A DNA stretch of 60,751 nucleotides, counting the filler, from Hausera hauseri (Eukaryota): NCBI GenBank assembly GCA_046269625.1. It is 12 parts of 12 records of this genome, joined end to end, with 100 filler letters (N's around TTAATTAATTAA, not from the genome) between each part and the next. Parts side by side here need not be neighbours in the genome. Positions count along the whole stretch, not along the records: positions 36,161 to 40,744 come from JBJURY010518126.1; 11 more parts are not named here. One strand, 5' to 3'. The notes beneath the pieces are model-generated. The model worked only from the letters and a program-made list of their open reading frames with translations. It was not told where the DNA came from and ran no database searches. The stretch's first letter is position 1. The number at the start of each line of letters is the position of its first letter. Of the stretch, positions 1 through 45,379 are shown piece by piece. Both the position numbers and the translations under genes were made by a program.

Positions 1-1054
1 TTCATTTAAAAAATATTCCTTCCAATAACTTCAGTCAGAACCGTCTTAGCGCCATTGAGGATACCTATGCAAAATAAAAGTCAGCCATCTTGGATGTTTC
101 CTTATCACGTCGTTTTTTCGCATCTCCTCAATGATCGCATATAACAAGCTTTTAAGGGTAAGGGGCCCTGTTTCTCTGACCATGTCTTCTTTTTAAATAT
201 GTGTTCTATGTAATGCTGTTTCTATTTTGTCCTTAGTGTGTCTAGTTTCTATGATATGCACTCTTTTTTTTAATGCTTTCACGCTTATCCTCTTACAAGT
301 CCTTTCTTTGTTTACATCAGCGGTTCTTTTCGGCATAACTAATGGTTCTCGTCTAGTAAGTGTCTCATCTTACTTCGGTTATCTCTCATCTGTTTTGCTA
401 GGTCTTGTTCATCCATTTCTTTTTTCTTTAACCTTCACATGTAATAATAGTGCATGTATTACACTTCGCTGTTATTTTATAGTGTTTCATATACTTAATT
501 TCTCACTTATAGGAACTTCCCCTTTCGTTCTTCACCCTCTGTGGTTCCTTTCTGCATGCCTCTATCTTACACCCACGCTTTCCCCACTTGCACTACCCTT
601 TTAGGTCAACGTCTGGTGAGGGCCTGCTCTCTCTTTTTTTTTTTTCTCCCTCCCGTCGGCTTTTTGCCCTCTTAGCATCTCCTGTTACCAGGCCCTTTGC
701 GTTTCAATTTCCCTTCCATTCCCCGTCTTGCTATCTAGTAACTTTTTTTTTCCCCTCCACTTCACTAGGTCCTTCATGTAATTCTTTTCTTTTTCTCCCT
801 TCTCACTTGTCAGTTGGTCAGAAATAGGGGCTCATAAACCCATGAGGTGTCTAGCAGCATCTGTGTAAATTTCTGTTTATTGTGCTTATAACTAACTTTG
901 CACCATGTGTTTACATAGAGTCGTGTGGATCTGAATCAGACGTGTGTAATATCGCTCCGATGACCGGCTAAAAAACAGCGTTAAAGGGACTTATCACATC
1001 GTGAAGCTCCGTATCTCCATCAGCATCCCTTGGTTCCTGCATATTTTTTCTTAA

Positions 1055-2578
1055 ATGGAAACCACGCTAACATCAACACCTAAAACCTCTAAGATCAACA
1101 CACCAGCTGCGTCTCCCCTGCCTCCAGTTCTAACACCGCAGACAGCAGATGTCTCACGGAGGCTAGACCACTTTGCACAGCTGCAACAGCTACTGCAAAA
1201 TGCAACGACTCTGCTGGATATGTTAGATATCCCAGACACACCATCCAACCAACGTGTCAAAAAGACTCTTGCTCAGCTCTTCAAGGACACAAAGAACCTC
1301 GTCCAAAGGCAGCAACGCCTCTACTCAGGACTCCACGCAGAACATCAGAAAACGAACCTCACCTCAGCAACAGTTTTCCCAAGTGACTCTTCATCATCGC
1401 TTTCAACCATCTCCACAAACATCAAGAATCTAACCGCAAAGCTGGACACACAACTGAACACTATCAAGGACAACCTAATCTCACTAGAGCAATCAAACCA
1501 AACAATAATAACCTCTCTCAAGGTACAAGCGGCTCCCACAACGGGACTAACGCTTTTTCCAACACAGCCACAATCAATTCTTTCCACAAATCCATTGATC
1601 CCGAAATCACCATCCCCGGGTGTCATCGTCTCCTCCAAGAAAGAAGACCTAACCACAGCCCAACTGACAGAGCATCTCCAGAAATCGTCAGTCAACCCAG
1701 ACCTGGTGCTTCGCACTCAGCCGCTCTCGAACGGCGTCCTCATCCACTGCGCCACAAAGTACGACGAATGTGCCCTTAGGGAAGCTATCAACACTGATCC
1801 AGACCTCTCGGATAAAATACTTCTCCAGAACAAAGAACTGCCCAAACTCAAACTTATCGTATTAAACTTACCTGCAACAATAGTGGAAGCTGACATTCAT
1901 TCAGCCATAGCACGTTCCCTCAGCCTTCACCTGGAAGAAGTCCCAATAACGTTTCTGGAAACAAAGCTCTCCAAGTCAAAAGGAACACAGGAACTTTATC
2001 ACTGGGTTTTTGAATTACCAACTTTTCAAGCAAGGGCCTTGGGCCGTTTTTCATCTCTACAAATAGGCTTCCACAAATATACCACCCGAAAATACACAAA
2101 ACTAATCCGCTGCAACAACTGCCAGGTATTCGGGCACAGACAACAGGACTGCACGAATCCCACCTACTGTGCACAGTGTGGTGCATACGGCCACTCTTCA
2201 GAATCTTGCCACTCCAGAAGACAGCACTGCATCAACTGCGAACTCTCAAACGCAACTTTTCATACCAAATACATCCTAAAGCACGCAGCATCGGACCCTT
2301 TCTGCCCAACCTTCAGGGACGAAAGAAAATTTCAGAGTAAAATTGTGACACAAACGTATTGGGATTACTCAGAAACTCATAGCTCACTTAACTGCAACTC
2401 CTCTTACACTATTGCAAACACCCACACGGCAAGTGAAGCTCTGACCACAAGAAGATACTCAGTTTTCTCCGAAGGGAGTGTCACCCAGCAAGGCACGTCA
2501 ACACCCCAGCGGCCAACCTCACCAAAGAATTCATCACCCACATCACTGGCCACAACACCATGCAAAAAACAGAAATAA
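1055..2578 (+). CDS. Non-LTR ORF1, gag-like nucleic-acid-binding protein
   Basis: 507 aa with a coiled-coil N-terminus and three Zn knuckles: CNNCQVFGHRQQDC, CAQCGAYGHSSESC, CINC...HAASDPFCP. Confidence 0.93.
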   Translation: METTLTSTPKTSKINTPAASPLPPVLTPQTADVSRRLDHFAQLQQLLQNATTLLDMLDIPDTPSNQRVKKTLAQLFKDTKNLVQRQQRLYSGLHAEHQKTNLTSATVFPSDSSSSLSTISTNIKNLTAKLDTQLNTIKDNLISLEQSNQTIITSLKVQAAPTTGLTLFPTQPQSILSTNPLIPKSPSPGVIVSSKKEDLTTAQLTEHLQKSSVNPDLVLRTQPLSNGVLIHCATKYDECALREAINTDPDLSDKILLQNKELPKLKLIVLNLPATIVEADIHSAIARSLSLHLEEVPITFLETKLSKSKGTQELYHWVFELPTFQARALGRFSSLQIGFHKYTTRKYTKLIRCNNCQVFGHRQQDCTNPTYCAQCGAYGHSSESCHSRRQHCINCELSNATFHTKYILKHAASDPFCPTFRDERKFQSKIVTQTYWDYSETHSSLNCNSSYTIANTHTASEALTTRRYSVFSEGSVTQQGTSTPQRPTSPKNSSPTSLATTPCKKQK

Positions 2579-5500
2579 CAGTTCTTCAATGCAACCTGCA
2601 CAAAGCGAAAGCCGCAAATGCCCTGACAGCGAAGTACATGCAGGAGAATAAAATCGACATCGCCCTTCTCCAAGAGGTCCATCTCAGTAAGGAAGATATA
2701 CCAACAAGCTTCCCAAGCTCCTGGAGAATGTTCTCCTCGGGAAACAAAATGGCATGGATCATACAAGCAAATACGTCTATCTCAACCAAAGAATCCGTCA
2801 CCACAGAGTCCAGTGTCTTCATTGGTAGCCAGATGGAAGCAGGACAAGCCATCCTCGGCTCACAATACATCTCCCCAACTGCGGACATAGATGAAGCTCT
2901 GGATGAGTGGCACCATGCCATAACCACAAAAATCCCTTTCTTCCTGTCTGGAGATCTGAATGCAAGATCAGAACTTTGGGGCGGCGACCACGAAGACCGC
3001 AGAGGTACTGCAGTGATTGAACACCTCTCAGCTAATCTCCTCACGATCTTAAACACAGAAGACAGCCCCCCGACGTACCACAACGCAGGAAGACGAGGAT
3101 GGCCAGATCTGACCATAACAAACAACGAAGGTTACCAAATCGCCAACAACTGGAAAGTTCTGGACGTTTTCAATGCATCCGACCACAATTACATTACATA
3201 TACACTTCTGGCAGCACCACAAACACCGAGCAGAAGACGCTACAAAACTAAGTACGGTAACCACGCGAAGTTCAAAAAATTCCTTGAGCCAAATCTGGTT
3301 ACCTTGGCGGAACACCAGCCACAAACCACCGAAGAATTGGAGGCCCAAACAGAACACCTGATACACAGCATTAAAGATGCTAGTCGCAGAGCCTATGCTC
3401 TAAAAGGCATTACAAAACAAGCAAAATTCCGCTGGTGGACACCTCAACTTAGAAGAGAAAGGAATCGCCTAACAGCATTAAGGCGTCTGCTGCCAAAGCT
3501 ACCCGAAGAGGAAGCAATAAATCAAAGAATCCAAATAAGAAAACTACAAGCACTATACAGAAAAAATCTCAATCGAACAAAAGAAAAGGCATGGAAGGAC
3601 TTCTGCTCCACTCAAAAAGACACGTACGGCGTGTGCTTTAAACTCACGCATGACAAGCTCTTTACACCACCTGAATTGAAAGTCAAATGGGACGACCAAC
3701 ATATTGACAAGAAAAACCAATACATCCGACTTACAGAACATCTGTTTCCAACCGCACCGATACAGACCCAACAGCAAGCACCGACCATGCCAATAGATGA
3801 CCCACTGACATACACAGATTCACCATTCACCAGAGAAGAAGTTCGTCACGTCTTGTTCAAACAAAATGTAAACAAAGCACCAGGTCCAGACGGCATAGAC
3901 TTCCGCATCCTCCGTGAAGCTTTCAAACTAAACCCGGATTTCTTCACAAAATGGACGAACGCCTGTTTAAAGCTGGGCTACTTTCCCAAATGCCTGAGAC
4001 AGGGAGAGGTTGTCTACTTCCACAAGTCTGGTAAAGATCCATCGCAGCCGGAATCGTACCGCCCAATCTGCCTACTTCCCACACTGAGTAAAGTCTTGGA
4101 GAAGCTAACTGTACAACGTTTAACATACCATCTCGAAATAAACAACCTCCTCAGCGAAAGGCAGTACGGTTTCCGGGAAAACAACTCCTGTGAAAAAGCT
4201 CTCCATCATTTGATAAAGAAAGCCAGAAGTCATATTCAAGATCAAAGATACATCTCCATTGTCTCAGTAGATATCAAAGGTGCTTTCGACAACCTCCCCT
4301 GGTGCTCCATCAATCAGGCATTAGTACGTCTCAGAACACCCAGCAATATCAGAAGGGTCATAACATCATACCTACAGGACAGGTCGATACTTATCAACTG
4401 GGGCACAGGCACGCAATCACACCCCCTGTCTCGAGGATGTCCTCAGGGCTCCTGCGTCGGACCCGTCCTGTGGAACATCGTAGCAGATGACATAATAAAG
4501 AAAGCAACATTGAATGGAGCTGAGGTTTATGCATACGCGGATGACATGACCTTCATATTCACAGGCAATGCTATAAAAGAACTACAGAACAATGCTAATA
4601 AACACCTTACACAACTAGAAGAACATCTACAACGACACAATCTCAAGTTATCAGAAGGAAAGACTCAGGCCCTTACGTTGGCACTCAAAACCAAAACTAA
4701 ACCACCTATTAGATTCGGCAGTAGTTCGGCCAAACAGGTCAAAAAACTGAAACTGCTGGGACTAACGCTGGACCCACGCCTCAACTGGATCCCACATATT
4801 GAGGACCTTAAAAAACGTACAAGCCATAGACAGCTCGCCATTCATAGAGTTGCGACAAGAACCTGGGGCATACCCAGCCACCTGTTGAGAGAATGGTACA
4901 TGTCAGTCCAAGAGCGGCAATTGGTCTACGCCGCGGGGGTATGGCATCCAGGTCTGACAAAGGCAGCCAAAAAGAAACTTGAATCAGCACAGAGAACCAG
5001 CCTGCTGGGCATTGCCAGAGCTTATAGAACAACATCTACAGCAGCCCTACAAGTCATCACAGGCATTCCACCTATCAACCTGACAGCCGAAATGGAAGCT
5101 CTGAAATTTGCAGTTTTACACGGCGAAATACCCCCACAACAGTTACCGACAGAACTCCGCGATATCACAATCACACAAAAAGCACCCTCATGGAAGATCC
5201 ACCCAGGCAAAGACTCCGAGGATAGACAATTTAAGCTTATGAAATCAAATTACAAAAACACAAATGGCTACAAAATATACACAGATGGCTCGAAAACCCA
5301 GAATGGGGTCGGTGCAGCCTTCGCAGTCTTTGAAGACGGCATGCAGCAGGACAAATGGTCCTCTACACTATCTGCGCACAACTCGGTCTTTCAGGCAGAG
5401 CTGTGCGCCATCGGCAGTGCCCTAGACTGGGTACAGAGCCAAGATAAGCCCAATGTCAACATCTACACTGACAGCATGTCCAGTCTTCAAGCTTTAAAAT

Positions 5501-6084
5501 CTCATCGCTCCAAAAACCCGCAGGTTCAAGATATCAAAAATAAACTACACAAACTACGCCATAAAACAAGACTACATTACATCCCAGCTCACCAGGGATA
5601 CAGCGGGAATGAAGAAGCAGATAGATTGGCGAAGGCAGCAGCGAGAAAATCTCAGACAGACACCGTAATACCAGCACCCCTTTCTTACCTACGCAAGGTC
5701 TTGAAAAATCGCAGATGGACAGCATGGCAACGGAATTGGGACGATGGCGACACGGGAAGGTATACCCACCAACACCTTCCAAAAGTACAGCATCCAAAGT
5801 TAAGGCTCACTTCCGAAGTGACAGCTTTCCTCACAAACCATGGTCCCTTCCCCAAATACCTGCATCGATTTAAATGTCGAAACACAGACCTGTGCCCATG
5901 CGGCTCTTCTGGAGATGCCACGCACTACCTGTTCGACTGCTCCCTCACGAAGGAGTGGCATGTCAAACGTCCCCATGCAGATCATTACGCAAAATGGACA
6001 GAGCAAGTAGCTGGAGTCTCTCTTCTAGTTAACAAACTCAGGGCAATTTACCGCTTCTTGCAAGACCTGAAAAGGCTGACTTAA
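2560..6084 (+). CDS. Non-LTR ORF2: apurinic endonuclease, reverse transcriptase, RNase H
   Basis: 1174 aa, uninterrupted. APE motifs LQCN, LLQE, GDLNA, SDH; RT motifs APGPDG, YRPICLL, QYGFR, DIKGAFD, GCPQGS, YADD; RNase H motifs YTDGS, AEL, YTDS, HQGYSGNEEADRLAK; C-terminal CPCG..HYLFDC. Overlaps ORF1 by 19 nt. Confidence 0.97.
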   Translation: MQKTEITVLQCNLHKAKAANALTAKYMQENKIDIALLQEVHLSKEDIPTSFPSSWRMFSSGNKMAWIIQANTSISTKESVTTESSVFIGSQMEAGQAILGSQYISPTADIDEALDEWHHAITTKIPFFLSGDLNARSELWGGDHEDRRGTAVIEHLSANLLTILNTEDSPPTYHNAGRRGWPDLTITNNEGYQIANNWKVLDVFNASDHNYITYTLLAAPQTPSRRRYKTKYGNHAKFKKFLEPNLVTLAEHQPQTTEELEAQTEHLIHSIKDASRRAYALKGITKQAKFRWWTPQLRRERNRLTALRRLLPKLPEEEAINQRIQIRKLQALYRKNLNRTKEKAWKDFCSTQKDTYGVCFKLTHDKLFTPPELKVKWDDQHIDKKNQYIRLTEHLFPTAPIQTQQQAPTMPIDDPLTYTDSPFTREEVRHVLFKQNVNKAPGPDGIDFRILREAFKLNPDFFTKWTNACLKLGYFPKCLRQGEVVYFHKSGKDPSQPESYRPICLLPTLSKVLEKLTVQRLTYHLEINNLLSERQYGFRENNSCEKALHHLIKKARSHIQDQRYISIVSVDIKGAFDNLPWCSINQALVRLRTPSNIRRVITSYLQDRSILINWGTGTQSHPLSRGCPQGSCVGPVLWNIVADDIIKKATLNGAEVYAYADDMTFIFTGNAIKELQNNANKHLTQLEEHLQRHNLKLSEGKTQALTLALKTKTKPPIRFGSSSAKQVKKLKLLGLTLDPRLNWIPHIEDLKKRTSHRQLAIHRVATRTWGIPSHLLREWYMSVQERQLVYAAGVWHPGLTKAAKKKLESAQRTSLLGIARAYRTTSTAALQVITGIPPINLTAEMEALKFAVLHGEIPPQQLPTELRDITITQKAPSWKIHPGKDSEDRQFKLMKSNYKNTNGYKIYTDGSKTQNGVGAAFAVFEDGMQQDKWSSTLSAHNSVFQAELCAIGSALDWVQSQDKPNVNIYTDSMSSLQALKSHRSKNPQVQDIKNKLHKLRHKTRLHYIPAHQGYSGNEEADRLAKAAARKSQTDTVIPAPLSYLRKVLKNRRWTAWQRNWDDGDTGRYTHQHLPKVQHPKLRLTSEVTAFLTNHGPFPKYLHRFKCRNTDLCPCGSSGDATHYLFDCSLTKEWHVKRPHADHYAKWTEQVAGVSLLVNKLRAIYRFLQDLKRLT

Positions 6085-36160: not shown

Positions 36161-36372
36161 ATCCTTCACGTTTATCCAAATGGTGAGAGTATTGGACGAA
36201 ATACTCATGTATCCGTTTTTTTTCGCACTTTGCAAAGATGTTGGTTAATGACGATACATTGATGCTAAAATTTGATTTGATTGAAACTTTACTACCGATA
36301 CCAATTCTACAGCCGGTATTTGATCGAAAATTACAACAGATGCTAAATCTTTACGGGAATATAAGGCTTTGA
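36161..36372 (+). pseudogene. TRAF-type MATH domain fragment
   Basis: LHVYPNGESIGRNTHVSVFF matches the TRAF motif xYxNGxGxGxxTHxSxF; NDDTLMLKF matches the last MATH strand. Frameshifted and internally shortened; AATAAA at 36436. Confidence 0.7.
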
Positions 36373-36501
36373 TAAATAGACAAAAAAATCTTGTGGCTTC
36401 TATGTATGTAGTTTTAGATAAGTAGTTGCAATGTCAATAAATCTTAGTGTTTTTAGTCTTGCTTTTTTTCTTCATAGAAAAAAATGTTATGAAAAAGTTT
36501 T

Positions 36502-36720
36502 TTATTTCAATGACAGATAGTAGTTAACACATAATAATTGTCCATCTTTAGTGTATATCGCAAAATATAGACTTGTTTTTATACATGTTGGACATGACGT
36601 ATAATCTTGCAGCCATTTGAGAATACATTCCAAGCAATATCTATGTGTACACCTAATCGGTCGAGCATTAATTTTCTGAATATCATTGAAACATATCACA
36701 TAAAAATTGTTTTGAGACAT
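36502..36720 (-). pseudogene. Small RING-finger (C3HC4) protein; first Cys appears mutated to Tyr
   Basis: YVICF...CTHRYCLECILKWL....CPTC; TATATA just upstream near 36756-36762. Confidence 0.8.
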
Positions 36721-36866
36721 AAACATTTTCGGTTTAATGACCAAAGTTTTGGAGTATATATACTCTTTTATCTCAAATTTGATTAGTTGAAAAGTAATAT
36801 AAATAAAGCTTCAAAATCATCCCAAAATCATTTCAAACTTTCAAAAATCTGCTAAAATCTGCTAAA

Positions 36867-39800
36867 ATGATTAATTGGATTTTCTTTTTTCTTTATTTAT
36901 AAATTCTAGATTTGCCACTTCAAATATTGCATCAATAAAGGTCATTCTGAAGAAAAATGCAACGACACGATGAACAAATATTATGGAGTGAAAGTCGACG
37001 GGCTCCAATTTTACATCTGCCCTACATGCGAGGTTGTATCTGGTCGACAATTCCCGGCATTCTGTAATCAGCATCGACACCATCTAACAATGTTTAATAA
37101 ACCAAAGAAAACCATACTGTAAGAACTCAGAGAAATGGTAAACATGACAAAACAGTTAGTATCACAGCAACGAATTCCGACAACTGATAAACCAGCTAAA
37201 CAGCCGATGAAACTAACAGAATCATCGCGTCACGCGGTTAAATGACAGATGAACCGAAACTCTGTTAAGCTAGCAAAGAATTCGAAAATGGATTCTGTGG
37301 AAAAGTTACGACTTAATGTTCAAACTATGATCGCTAATAATTATGTGAACCTTTGCTTTGGTGCTTCGCCTGACCAACTCATTTCTACTCGATAACCTCA
37401 GGAAATTCTGAATACTGTAGATGTGTACACTTCTAGGTTTTCTTCGTGTAAGATTCCATACAGACTGGAAATTCTGTTTGCAAATGCTGAAGTTGACTTT
37501 AAGGAGGCATATATTTCACGTCGAGATGTCCCTTATGAAAAGGCTTATCCGCAATCGGTAGCTGATACTTTGCGTGAGCCAGTTGAAAATTTTGCCGAAA
37601 TGAGTAGTGGTTGGAAGGTAGTGAAAATTGGAAAATACTGTTTTCATATAGTTAGAACTAGCCCACTAACTTATCTATCTGGAAAATCTACTAACACATG
37701 ACGCTTTAAATTTCGCAGAAAGTTATTAACGTGCAAAATGAGGATATTTTGTGTTTCTAATACTCTATTCTCCCAACGACCAAATGTTCTTCTATCGACA
37801 ATAATAGATATAGAAATAGAGTTAGCAGTTACATTCCTTATTTAAGCGAGCTGAAATATTCTTTGGATGATATGTCTATGAAGATATGCAGCATAAGTAA
37901 ATTTGAGAGGTAGAATCCACAGTTGTCAATTAATGTTTTCTTGTTTCACGATGTGGATGATGCGGATTTTGATGAGAATGTAGTGAAAAATCCATTCGTT
38001 GATATTTTGTATAAAAGAAAAATCTGAATGGTACTATAGTGACCTTGATGATTTTAGAAAATGACGGTAAGTTTCCCTATGTTGCAGTTCCTAATCTTAA
38101 TCGGTTGTTGAACATATGGCCTAACTCTATGAGAATTCAATGTAAGTATTGGTGTGAGAAATGTTTTCATGGCTTTAGGCTTGACACGGCTTAAGCTAAG
38201 CATTTACCAATGTGCACATCTTCTTCCAAATGCACAACTTTTTACAGAATGCCCGAAAACAAGTCTTTGCAAATTTTAGTCCTGAGCCAAATCTATAAGT
38301 CCTCATTTCGTCATATATTCTGACTTTGAATCTGTTCTGTGTCCTGATGATAAGGTTAAGCTTATTCATTTGCCTGCTGCAGCTAGTCTTTTGTTACTTT
38401 TATTAACGCGTATTCAATATAAACAATTTTTTGGTGAAAATTCTATTGTTGAGTTTCTGGCTTGTTTAAAGGAAATTGTGAAAAGCTTGGTTTTCTCCTG
38501 GTATGAAAGTTCGAAAAAGCCAGTGATTCCACTAACATCAGCTGAATGGTTTCAGGTCAAAAATTCCACATATTGCTACCTCCGTCATGAAAACGGTTCT
38601 TAATTGGTTCAAGATTACTGCCATGTTAGTGGTAAATTCTTAGGCCCAGCATGTAATAAATGTAACTTGGCTCGACAGATTAAGTACAATTTACCTGTTA
38701 TGTTCCATAATTTGCGCGGATATGGTCTTCATCATACTATAAAACACACATTAAGCAAATTCGGAAATTGGGAATTAAGTGTCATTCCGCAAACAACAGA
38801 GAAATTCATGACTAGGCAGGCAGTGATACAATTTTCAGGTAAAAAGTCTGTTTCATTTTGCTTTTTTGACACACTTCTGCTTTTATCTGCTTCACTGAAG
38901 ACACTTGCCTCTAATTTAGACTGTTATCCATTCATGAAATCAGCTTTATCAACTGATATCATCAAGAGTAAAGGCGTTTTTCCATACACTGCACCCAAAT
39001 CGTTTATTTACTTGCAGTCAGTTTCAGAATTACCACCAAAATGGGATGGCTTTAGTTACAACGATTATCAGGAGGCTCAACTTACCTGGCCAAGATGTAG
39101 ATGTAGCTCGCTTTTAGATTACATATTGGTATACATGAAACAAGATGTATACTTGTTAGGTTATATTTCTGAACGTTTTAGAAAGCAGGTTAAATTGGCG
39201 GATGGCTTAGAAGCGGTTAATTTCGTACCTATTTCCGGATTATCTTGGGCAACCGTGTTGTATTGAGCTCATTCACAATCCAGAAATGTATAGTTTTTTC
39301 AATCGGGTATTCGCGGTGGCATGACTTTTGTAAATAAGCATAGGATTACCACCAATGATAGCTCCACTATCATGTATATAGATGTGAATAATTTGTACTC
39401 CTGGGCTTTATCTCAACCTTGGCCATTTGCCAATTTAGTATGGATTTATGATGAGGATAAATTAAACAATCTGAATTCACTATTTCCTTTTGTCGACACG
39501 GTTACACAAAAACATGGTCTCGTCTTTGAAGTTGATTTCAGAATTCCTGCTGATAAACACGATAAGTTAGACGAACTGCCTTTAGCTACAATCAATGTCG
39601 TCCTGGTTTTCGAGTTAAGAAATTTCTGCTAAACATGAGCGAAAGTCCAACTATATCATACACTATAGGCTTTTGCAGCTATACATCAAGTTAGGGGCTG
39701 TAGTTGAAAAGGTACATCGGGCGATTGAATATGATCAAGGTTATATCTTTAAGGACTACATCAACCTTAATAGTGTAAAGAGGGCTGCTGCTAAAAATGC

Positions 39801-40570
39801 TTTTGAAAAAGACTTTTAAGCTGAAGAATCACAGTTTGTATGGAAAAACAATGGGAAATCTGATGAAACTGTCCAATTTGAGTCTTTGTAACAATGCAAG
39901 GAGGCTTGTAACATATGTCAGCAAAGCCCAGTTTAAAGAAAGTATCATTATTGCTAATGATCTGGTTTCTGTTCTCCTTGATAAGGACACAGTTACACTA
40001 GAAAGTCTTTCATACATCTGTCAGGCCGTACCTGATCTTTCCAAGTTATGGATGTATGAGCTTAATTACATCGAGTAGGATAAGCATAGACATCAGTTTA
40101 ATTGTGAGTTAAATATCATTGCTGGTGACACGGATAGCTTTTTTCGTGAGTGCCATGGAGTTAATTTAAGATCACAACTCTTACCAGCATTGATTTCTAA
40201 TAAAGAGTTGGACACATCGAATTATGATACTAACGACACTGTTTATTCCACTAGTTCCTCGGCTGTTATAGGGAAGTTTAAATACGAAAGCAAAGGCAGT
40301 GTCGAGTACAAAGAGGGAATTTTCCTAAGAGCGAAATGTTACGCGTTGAAAACACAAAAAAGTCCGTATTGAAAAGTCAAGATTTGCAGTTTGAAAACTT
40401 TCTCCACGCCTATGAAAGTGGTCATGGAACAACAGGCTACCAGGAGCGTATCGGAACAAATAATCATCAGCTCATGACAACAAGCAGCAAAAAGAAAGAA
40501 TTGGACCCGTTCGACGATAAGAGACAGTGGCTTCAGAAAAATCAGTGTCGCTTATGGCCATTACTGTATA
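36867..40570 (+). pseudogene. Protein-primed DNA polymerase B of a Polinton/Maverick/adintovirus-type element, decayed
   Basis: SGW, IYSDFES, DYCHVSGKFLGPACNKCNL (endonuclease VII-like), FHNLRGY, KGVFPY, IRGG, YIDVNNLY, KLKNHSLYGK, GDTDSF, GKFK.E, DDKR. Many stops and frameshifts. Confidence 0.92.
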
Positions 40571-40844
40571 TAATTTTGTACAATAAATATTTTAGTCTTA
40601 TTTGTTTTTTTATTCGTAGTAAATTTGTACAGTTTTAGTAATTGTAGTTTTACATTGTGGATATAGCTTTACGTTTGAACATTTAAAACATACTACCAGA
40701 TGACCGCACATTAGGAACACTGTATCCACTTTATTTTCTTTACANNNNNNNNNNNNNNNNNNNNNNNNNNNNNNNNNNNNNNNNNNNNTTAATTAATTAA
40801 NNNNNNNNNNNNNNNNNNNNNNNNNNNNNNNNNNNNNNNNNNNN

Positions 40845-43800
40845 TAGATGAAACTATCAGTATCCATATACATCATCTTCATGGACGTGAACTTGTGGAC
40901 CATTATATCGTAATGGAATTTGTACATCAAGGTCTTTGATAGATCCCATATTGCCATACCCACATATATGGGCTTATTGAATACCAATGCTGTTTTCAGC
41001 ATATGGATGCCTATCAAGATTTCAGTATATATGGTGCTGCTATGGATGTTAGGCTTGGCAATAAGCTTCTTTGCCCACTTCTAGTCACATACTAGCTCCA
41101 TGTTGATCCTATTACGGATATTCTCCATGGTCTTGCCAAAAACCGAGTTGTTGTAAAGCTTGAACTGGTACTTCTCAAAGTCGTTTTTGGCACTAGTCCG
41201 CAGCTTCGTATAGAGATCTATGTGTGAGTGAAGCCACATGGACTGGTTGAACTGCAGGGCTCTATGGATCTTAGTAATACGAAGTCCATGTCTAACTGCC
41301 TGCTAGAGATTGATGTAGTGGACTACATACCTATCTCTATTACCCCCATGACATAGCAGCTTACTCTGTTTTCCATGTGACGGGGGCCTGCTCTCAGTAA
41401 AGAAAGGAAGCTGGTTATGCCTTGCGTGGATGGAAGTCGGATATTCCATGTCCACCACCAGTATGTATCCCGTATCTCCAGTAGGATCCGAGTCCAATAT
41501 AGTGATGTATTCAGGATTTGCGACCCATTTGAAGTTATCATATGGCAATAGGGAGCTCATTGCCCACCCACACAAGTTGTTGGTATCCAGGTATGATATA
41601 TATGTGATTCCTTGGATCTATCATACTGGGTCATATACTTGTTGTTGGCCTCACTATACCGATGAATGGCGTGGAATATTCCGCATCTAATGCCTCTCTC
41701 AATCATAAGGATCATATCCTAATCCTTAATGATCTACAGCCTAATATCAGTATAACACAGCATTGCTGTCCAGCTCATCCCCGCAGCCGTAAAGAAATGA
41801 GCCGGATTCAATGCATGGCTCTTCGCTGTAACATCCCTGAAACTCTCAAGTACATCTGTCAGCAGCAGCACATCAGTTTGGCGATATATATATATATCAC
41901 TATATTCCTCTAACGTTTGGCATTGGAATGCATGCCAGACGTTCTGAGCATGATGATAGTCAGCATCACTGATATCGCAATCAGAGAGAATATTCTAAAA
42001 CTGCTTCTTGTCTATCAATGAGGTCTCATCCAATGTTTCCCATGAAGTTACGTAATCATAGGGAAACACGCCTTTCCTTTTAACCAGGTCAAATGTAGTG
42101 GGGAAGAAACGCTTCATCTCCTTGAGTTCTTCTGCAGAGAGGTTCTTTTTTACTAAACTGTCCAGTGAAGACGACATGAAACGAAAGCTGTCTATGAAGC
42201 GAAGTCGGATTTTTTCAGCATGCTTAGTAAAAGTGATATATTTCTCCTCACTGTTTAAAATCACATCTATATTACCATCATTGTTGCCTAATTCTTGGAC
42301 CATGAAATAGAAATCATAGCCACTGATATTGTGGAACACTACAGGCACATATGTACATGTTTTGCAGCGAAGATTGCATTTGTTGCATGTTGCCCCTCGA
42401 TATTTGCCTTTAAAATACAGCGATCCTTGAATTTATAATTTTCCTTGGTGAAGGACTTGTTGCACAAGTAACATGTTGTTGCCTTGCGCCATTCATCTCA
42501 TTGTTTCCACGACATGCTCATATTATCCTTATGCTGTTGCAGCACGTTTTCAAGCTTATGAACCATGTCTTCAAGTCGTTTCATGAAATGTGCTGCTGCA
42601 CTTGAAAGTCTAAATAGAAATGGTTTACTATCCCGTCCTGTGGCATACATACAATATGATGAGAGTTCATGATATTGGTATGACGTTTTACTGCTATGTT
42701 GAGGACTGTGAGTGCAGCTGTAAAGTGGCCGGAGAATAGCTTCAAAGTCGCAATAGATAACTATTGGGACCTAGACCTTCTTCTCGAACTCCTTGAATTC
42801 AATATAGTCCTCCTTGGGAAATTCTGGCCATATACTGTAATTGCTGCTAAAGAACATTTTGTGCTCTGCAAGCTTGTCCACTGAAGTATCACGACTGAAA
42901 TGAGACAGACATCGTTTACATATTTCTATTTATGCATGATGATTTGTAATTTTGGATCTGACTAGACGCTCAAAGTTCTTGATCCAAACAAAATGTTGCT
43001 TTTCTCCATTGTCTAGTAGGAGCAGATAGCCATGATCTTCCAATTCAACATCGCATATATGCAGGGGATAGAATTTGTCCTCATCATCCAATCCAAATAT
43101 GTTGGTTTATATGTTGTTGATTCGACTGAACTTCTTAATTTCATATAAGAATGGAGGGAATGTGATACGTTGGAAGTCATAGTTGTGCTGCACATTCTTA
43201 TATTGCCAAACTTGTGAAGCATTATGTTGATCCGGTACAAGTTTTAATAGAATGGCATACATGAAACACATGTTGTCATTATTACGGACATTGACACATG
43301 CTTTTTTATTAGCGATTCAATCAGGGAGCTGAATATATAAACTTCCTCGCATGGGGGAGAATCTGTGCACATACACAAGCAATTTTGTTATGATTGACAG
43401 ATTCCATCCGCTCTTCTTATCCTAGCTCTTATCAGTTTTACGGATCAGCTTTGCATGCACTTCATGCAGCCATCCTGATATATTGGTGGCTTCAAAAATA
43501 GGCATATTTTTGGTCTTGAATGCCCTTTTGGACTCTTCGCCATCAACACTGACGTATGTGGCCTCAAGTTTCATATTAGCCTTAACGGCCTTGAGCTAAG
43601 CTATGCTGTTCTGGAGAATTCCCTTTATTTCTTCTTCTGTGTACTCCAGGAACTTTTTGATGGTTGTTTGACCAGTTGCATCAATGTCATATTTGCGGCA
43701 TTTCCTCTTTAATGATGCAGCATTAACTGGACTTTGTCTTTTACTCCTTGATGGAGCCGGTACGCCTAATGCGCCTGATGTGCCTGATGCGCGTTTTTGT

Positions 43801-44384
43801 CCTGTATCTGGCTGTACTGCAGGCTGTGGTACAGCAAGGTGTGCAAATTGCTTATGTTCAATAAAGATGATCTTCTTTGACTTTGATGCAAAGTAAGTCA
43901 ATTGATGCCTGTGATCTTCATAAAACTGTATGTATTCGCCATCACATACAGCCTCACATCTTAGGCAGATATAATAAATGATACTATTGAATTAGTGTCC
44001 ATAATGGCTCCTCATGGTATTGTAGAAATTCTGAGGGTTGTGTATTGCACATGTACAATACACATATGAACTGCACACTGTATTTTCAATTGGCATGAAA
44101 GTCGTTATTGGCATATTGGTACTGAATATTTGTTTTTTCGACTTGGTGAATGAAATCAAGTGCTGTTTATGGACATTGTAAAATACTACATAATTGGTTT
44201 GGCACACTACCTCATATGTAGGACATATATGATACTGAACCCTGTTGTATAGATGGCCAAAGTACTTCTTCATAATACTGCGGCAATTTTTAGGCTCACG
44301 GATTTGAGCCAAACATTCGGTGCGAAGTTTGCACATCTATAAATCAACCAATTATTTGAGGAGCACAATTAAAAAACTCACCAT
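40845..44384 (-). pseudogene. Second protein-primed DNA polymerase B (Polinton/Maverick/adintovirus-type), decayed and truncated by the spacer
   Basis: [90 protein letters not shown]. Confidence 0.93.
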
Positions 44385-45379
44385 TCGTTGAAGTGATTTT
44401 GGAAATAATGAAAAATATAGCCATATCACCATGTACTGCCTCGCTTATTTATTGGTTTTAATGCGCTTTTGTTTTAATGAATCAATTAAATTAAATAGAA
44501 GGCGGCGCCAAATTTAAGGTTTCCGACTATGAGGAATAGAAAGACGTCATAAGATTCATCGAATAATGCATGCTTGACCGAATTTTTGAGCTTGAATTGC
44601 TAAGTATTTGACTTGTGAGCTCGAATTCGAATACCTGGTGCCATATTCCGGTTTATCATACATGACTTCCTACCCTGCCCCGCTTATAGATTTATCGATT
44701 TCCGCTTCACTGGGCTTTAAATGCACAGTTTGCTTAATTTGAAATATTTATTTTATGTGTATATAGTAAATTTACATGGAATAATTTTTATGAATAAAGG
44801 GGTTTTCATATATGAGGAATCGATTCCCGCTGTTAGATTTTTTGGGTAGTGTGATATTAGATGTTCCAGCTCAAAAATATTCGCATTTCGAATATCTAAC
44901 TCGAGATTCGAGATCGCCATACTCAATTTCCTATCTGTCCCCGCTAATTATAATATCGAATTTTGCTTTTGTAGGTCCTAAAAAACCTATGCGGGTTCTG
45001 CCTCAGTTGGGAATTATTCGAAAACCAATCAATATATTTAAATTCTAACTGCACATGCTCACAGTGCATCATGTTGGCTACCAATTGCATCCGGTGCCGT
45101 GCCCCAATAATCAATATTGGGAATATCGGAAATCCAATATTATTGATTTTTGCACACTTGCACGTGTGCTGCACACCTGCACTGTGCACAAATACATGCG
45201 CACTGAAGTGCACTATCGAGTAGCACTTTGTGCCGATCGATTCGATCAATACTGCACTGTGCAGCGATCGATTTGAGAANNNNNNNNNNNNNNNNNNNNN
45301 NNNNNNNNNNNNNNNNNNNNNNNTTAATTAATTAANNNNNNNNNNNNNNNNNNNNNNNNNNNNNNNNNNNNNNNNNNNN

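Follow-up and report, generated by a model that had tools for sequence, protein, structure and literature searches.

Both Polinton/adintovirus-type pPolB genes in a 60,751-nt stretch of Hausera hauseri DNA (assembly GCA_046269625.1; hereafter, the window) carry at their N terminus a Cys/His module of ~70 residues, present once in one gene and as two tandem copies in the other. The module is a real accessory domain that has not been catalogued, whereas the element that bears it belongs to a known kind. We tentatively propose that, in two Polinton/adintovirus lineages, this conserved and predicted zinc domain acts as the DNA- or chromatin-tethering part of a genome-linked terminal protein (TP). 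The window comprises 12 small scaffolds separated by N spacers, with a content of mostly retroelement debris; the pPolB genes lie on scaffold 8 (36161–40744, plus strand) and scaffold 9 (40845–45279, minus strand).

Module copy A (36910–37119, plus strand) retains all eight candidate ligands (C2, C7, H12, C17, C37, C40, H55, and H58). On the minus strand of scaffold 9, two of the eight are missing from copy B1 (44115–44336) and one from copy B2 (43854–44075), which also contains an in-frame stop. A profile made of 37 outside relatives, with the window left out, matched the three copies with E values of 1.9e-24, 5.7e-18, and 5.1e-15, respectively, while the next-best frame of the window reached only 1.2; since the relatives had been recruited with the window copies, this test is not fully independent. 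On scaffold 8, the module is followed by a low-complexity linker with two in-frame stops (37120–37302, plus strand), which is unbroken in the relative P0033. The latter aligns to 36970–37689 without gaps and in a single frame (48.6% identity), that is, across module, linker, and TP; the stops of scaffold 8 therefore represent decay, and the fusion is real. The alignment thus bears out the original prediction that the module is in frame with the PolB N-terminal region; the translation given there from 36910 is exact, and the in-frame stops it listed at 37120, 37243, and 37393 are all present. The module was also correctly predicted on the second PolB contig, although as one copy and not as the tandem pair.

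Relatives were collected by searching a three-row profile of the window copies against 1.84 billion representative proteins, which yielded 37 matches at E ≤ 1e-3. In the 40-row alignment of these proteins with the three window copies, the candidate ligands are strongly conserved (C7 in 29 of 29 rows, H12 in 31/32, C17 in 30/33, C37 in 40/40, C40 in 39/40, H55 in 40/40, and H58 in 38/40), as are P38 (38/40), F51 (40/40), L59 (36/40), F62 (39/40), and K66 (38/39); the column of the first Cys shifts between rows. A core CxxC-x13/15-HxxH pattern is found in 37 of the 40 rows, and an N-terminal C-C-H-C pattern in 25 of the 31 that are long enough to contain it. The module is thus predicted to have eight ligands forming two candidate metal sites: an optional one (C-C-H-C) and a core (CxxC-x14-HxxH). 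Only the core is retained in the tandem copies of P0055, P0058, P0063, and the metagenomic locus L004. It occurs in one to three copies and has a median net charge of +3. Judging by this pattern, which is typical of zinc sites, it probably binds one or two zinc ions.

The AlphaFold model obtained with the module alignment is confident (pLDDT 95.6, pTM 0.81) and compact and consists of a helix (residues 14 to 25), three short strands, a second helix (48 to 58), and a short final helix. No significant match to the module was found in Pfam, NCBIfam, PHROGs, PDB, or BFVD, so that the already named domain whose discovery would have undone the original prediction did not appear. The best Foldseek rows, themselves nonsignificant, were DNA-binding C2H2 fingers aligned over 33 columns (Kaiso, E 1.8; TM score by query, 0.34).

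The polymerases following the module are of a known type. Pfam DNA_pol_B_2 (PF03175) matched on both scaffolds (E of 6.4e-8 on scaffold 8 and 1.6e-7 on scaffold 9). The profile of the TP/vOTU region of 20 related module-less pPolBs matched scaffold 9 with an E of 1.6e-83 and scaffold 8, in the TP part only, with an E of 1.5e-6. On scaffold 8, the predicted TP (D1) region (37303–37689, plus strand), with one in-frame stop, includes the SGW motif and a candidate linking Ser near 37606; the motifs were mapped by us after the available part of 10.1101/2024.03.18.585575. On scaffold 9, the predicted TP and vOTU region (42900–43721, minus strand), interrupted by several stops, contains SGW near 43412 and candidate catalytic Cys and His residues at ~43268 and ~42995. 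The SGW and vOTU Cys/His motifs were also found in P0030, P0033, and P0063. With a PF03175 polymerase behind an N-terminal TP/vOTU region, the latter assigned by sequence profile and motifs and not by structure, both genes qualify as Polinton/adintovirus pPolBs of the Alpha type.

The same fusion is seen in the relatives. The TP/vOTU region was detected in 8 of the 37 by the profile of module-less pPolBs, and the TP in three more by a profile of the TP of scaffold 8 and its kin (lineage A, below), bringing the module-to-TP order to 11 of 37. Among these assignments, that of P0043 is partly circular, its cluster-mate P0066 being in the lineage-A profile, although P0066 also matches the independent profile (E 4e-4). 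Unbroken relatives, which include P0063, a full-length pPolB of 1286 residues with two core module copies, have the order module(s), low-complexity linker, TP, vOTU, and polymerase. An Endonuclease_7–like Cys/His stretch was observed within the polymerase exonuclease region of P0063 (residues 585 to 626, E 8e-9) and P0033 (529 to 565, E 4e-5); module-less relatives have it too.

A DNA pattern scan of metagenomes returned five loci, two of which, L001 and L004, are genuine. (L002, an 8.6-kb chance match unrelated to the module, has unusual open reading frames with basic repeats, along with possible virion genes.) In L001, the module is found beyond the stop codon of pPolB, at the front of a separate predicted gene (996–2188, plus strand), in which five exons joined by four GT-AG introns of 40 to 45 nt give a 340-codon frame with no internal stop. 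The product consists of the module, a disordered middle, a heptad-like helical tail, and a basic end; it has no TP/vOTU match, and its tail has no match among the other module carriers. The gene is convergent with protease and capsid-like genes. The polymerase ends of L001 and scaffold 8 share 55% identity, and lineage A therefore uses the module both fused and separate. In L004, the module follows capsid-, protease-, and exonuclease-like reading frames, and the contig ends inside a second module copy. An adenain-like frame is present in both loci (PF00770, E 0.014 in L001). Other frames of L001 and L004, which have no Pfam match, we take to encode major and minor capsid proteins; neither an integrase gene nor terminal inverted repeats were seen. 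An apparently spliced frame between the protease and module genes of L004 (2908–3426, plus strand), likewise with no Pfam match, presumably encodes a small DEDD-type exonuclease, as judged from a motif; a piece of it recurs at the end of P0023. The proviso of the original prediction that intact relatives might show the module as a separate gene unlinked to PolB is thus borne out in part, by the spliced gene of L001, while in at least 11 of the 37 relatives the module is fused to TP.

To place the carriers, a tree was built from the TP/vOTU/exonuclease region with modules removed (610 columns, LG+G4; 18 rows, of which 14 were from the 20 reference pPolBs, near-duplicates being excluded). Scaffold 9, P0030, and P0063 form lineage B (support of 100/99), which groups with P0003, P0004, and P0005 (98/97); lineage A, represented by P0033, falls outside this group on a long branch. 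Forcing the four module carriers together made the tree 28.8 log units worse and was rejected (p-AU 0.0019). A 24-row mixture-model quick tree again grouped lineage B with P0003, P0004, and P0005 (SH-aLRT 99). In the largely unresolved C-terminal tree (241 columns), a single module clade was not rejected (p-AU 0.19). The leaders of P0004 and P0005 have ordinary-looking fingers in place of the module; the P0003 sequence lacks the leader. A CxxC..H..H/C finger is present in the leader of 7 of the 20 module-less pPolBs. The simplest reading is that the module is a mobile accessory domain in a variable leader slot of pPolB that is otherwise filled by C2H2-type fingers, which accords with the mosaicism below the gene level that the available text of 10.64898/2026.10.13.758929 reports in these viruses. 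We infer that it moved among elements residing together in one host group and was not inherited by one polymerase clade. The original prediction of a module common to two divergent polymerases and fused to the pPolB N terminus as an unnamed domain therefore stands, with zinc binding as a prediction; the suggestions that the domain is lineage specific and defines a Polinton/adintovirus subgroup are not supported by the N-terminal tree.

The tethering role is tentatively preferred because the linkers are basic, because the module could be retained at genome ends, and because the adenovirus TP has a nuclear localization signal (PMC8036708, available part). Among 16 linkers, all of low complexity, 15 have at least three Lys or Arg within seven residues, a count made without background comparison. 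In the consulted portion of 10.1101/2024.03.18.585575, D1 is argued to be the TP, and vOTU cleavage right behind it is considered likely and offered as a hypothesis. If vOTU cut the polyprotein directly behind the TP, the module, basic linker, and TP would remain covalently attached to the linear genome at its 5′ ends, which the module may then tether to nuclear DNA or chromatin; classical C2H2-type fingers may play a like part in the same slot of other pPolBs. Several observations weigh against this proposal. The paper just cited itself puts forward vOTU cleavage in Polintons as a hypothesis. The resemblance to C2H2 fingers falls short of significance at the E and TM values given above, and the charge of the module is modest. 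For as many as 26 of the 37 relatives, the sequence is too short or breaks off too soon to reveal a downstream domain. Since the module heads a TP-less gene in L001, it does not depend on TP for its use. Last, 4 of the 16 linkers contain QxG[GA] (four times in P0030), a possible viral-protease site that would free the leader.

The latter two points would agree with a different role, which we regard as a real possibility if hardly a probable one: the module could be a cleaved-off or separately expressed regulatory or host-interaction domain (a protein-binding, early product) that merely shares the polymerase transcript. Consistent with this, ~11 of the short relatives stop right after the module in G-K, G-N, or G-T followed by hydrophobic residues, which, by eye and at the protein level, looks like read-through of a splice donor into an intron. 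However, QxG[GA], an uncalibrated consensus presumed to be a viral-protease site, is absent from both window linkers and from those of P0033 and P0063, and the module-TP fusion is retained in both polymerase lineages. Small Cys-rich “Oncoid” genes upstream of PolB in adintoviruses (PMC8502044, in part) also fit a released domain. It is unlikely, in our view, that the module is just a classical C2H2 finger, strongly diverged and extended at its N terminus, of a type common on Polinton pPolB leaders. In favor of this reading, the C-terminal half of the model looks β-β-α with CxxC and HxxH, fingers head the Foldseek rows, and fingers such as that of P0012 occupy the same protein slot and likewise combine CxxC with a helix bearing two His. 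The module differs in its 14-residue spacer, HxxH, additional N-terminal helix, hairpin, and C-C-H-C site; the classical spacing C-x2/4-C-x12-H-x3/5-H fits only 1 of the 40 rows, and none was matched by the PF00096 model at E ≤ 0.1. Quite unlikely is a further reading, in which a single undescribed Polinton/adintovirus clade inherited the module, which would then mark it. Every relative with context is Polinton-type, the C-terminal tree is compatible with one clade, and common short introns and a start-codon intron suggest a single host group; against this stand both trees that place lineage B with P0003, P0004, and P0005, although P0033 is a long branch in the N-terminal one, and the fingers of P0004 and P0005. 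Going beyond the tethering role, it is conceivable, although improbable, that the module is a new two-site zinc fold with which intron-bearing Polintons of one poorly sampled host group target their proteins. It would have passed between unrelated polymerase lineages, would replace classical fingers on the genome-linked TP, and would be reused on a separate nuclear protein; both proteins would then dock on a common DNA or chromatin target and steer the site of replication or integration.

At the start of the module gene, scaffold 9 and L004 share a layout in which an ATG is directly followed by a GTGAGT donor, an intron (45 and 51 nt, respectively), and the module; on scaffold 9 (44337–44384, minus strand), the start codon is at 44384–44382 and the predicted GT-AG intron at 44381–44337. 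On scaffold 8, a candidate ATG 43 nt before a good acceptor begins the segment 36867–36909 (plus strand), in which a 40-nt pyrimidine-rich stretch leads to the AG; there is no canonical donor directly after the ATG, and, by analogy with scaffold 9 and L004, the segment is likely a decayed 5′ intron. The module genes are thus predicted to be spliced via a tiny 5′ exon and short introns. The 9-nt TATA-like word ATAAGCGAG is present once in the window, at 44448–44440 (minus strand), and in L004 at 3562–3570 (plus strand); the module gene starts 64 nt further on in the former and 74 nt in the latter.

Both gene copies in the window are dead, carrying in-frame stops and, on scaffold 8, frameshifts, and pPolB is the only gene of the Polinton set on the two ~4.5-kb scaffolds. 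The rest of the lineage A gene (vOTU, exonuclease, and polymerase) is recognizable at 37713–40537 (plus strand) by tblastn with P0033, P0063, and P0003 and by DNA_pol_B_2; that of lineage B, at 40847–42899 (minus strand), is 57 to 58% identical to P0063 by tblastn, matches the same Pfam model, and is truncated at the scaffold end. Contig pieces from one public sequencing run covered 30 of 30 bins of each scaffold; the assembly may itself derive from this run, which is hence not independent support. Since the pieces are so numerous (29,689 for scaffold 8 and 75,535 for scaffold 9) and mostly <99% alike, both pPolB families appear to consist of many divergent copies within one sample. A frameshifted MATH-like fragment (PF22486, E 0.027) at 36161–36345 (plus strand), ~550 nt 5′ of copy A, is either element cargo or flanking host DNA. 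The far end of scaffold 9 (45177–45276), ~800 nt upstream of the pPolB start, contains short imperfect repeats and palindromic words and is possibly an element terminus. Elsewhere in the window, the segment 50259–53300 of scaffold 11 (plus strand) contains fragments of host-type genes, broken and free of introns (RNA polymerase largest subunit, PF00623, E 1.9e-19; lipase class 3, E 0.005), directly before a Gypsy gag-protease-reverse transcriptase unit, and an apparently intact LINE (1055–6084, plus strand) encodes a 507-residue ORF1 with zinc knuckles and a 1215-residue ORF2 with endonuclease, reverse transcriptase, and RNase H.

Compared to the TP (D1)–vOTU (D2)–polymerase proteins of Polintons and adintoviruses (10.1101/2024.03.18.585575; Alpha PolB of PMC8502044), the genes described here share the SGW TP, vOTU Cys/His, and PF03175 polymerase behind the module and differ in an additional leader, in which an unnamed Cys/His domain occurs one to three times; the available portions of these two accounts do not mention a zinc domain ahead of the TP. 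The adintovirus accessory genes “Ziftr” and “Oncoid” (PMC11071296 and PMC8502044, in part) resemble the L001 gene in encoding small stand-alone Cys/His proteins. Two Ziftr entries, among 24 occurrences, were compared: a classical C2H2 finger is present in one and absent from the other, and the module is in neither. Gain of accessory domains by pPolB has a parallel in the HNH and VSR insertions of nematode and oomycete pPolB2, used as lineage markers in the available part of 10.1101/2023.08.22.554363; those are nuclease domains, whereas the module sits at the N terminus, shows no evident catalytic motif, and in our trees extends beyond a single polymerase clade.

The surrounding system is already known, and it is no surprise as such that a pPolB should bear an accessory domain. 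To our knowledge, Polinton cycles in animals have yet to be described in detail; beyond priming, the TP may act in nuclear delivery, tethering, or integration-site choice. Since gene callers overlook the tiny 5′ exons and 40- to 51-nt introns that these polymerase genes carry, the annotation of pPolB leaders is probably incomplete. As a small, well-folding, and uncatalogued domain of the TP leader, the module offers a direct handle for structural studies and binding assays.
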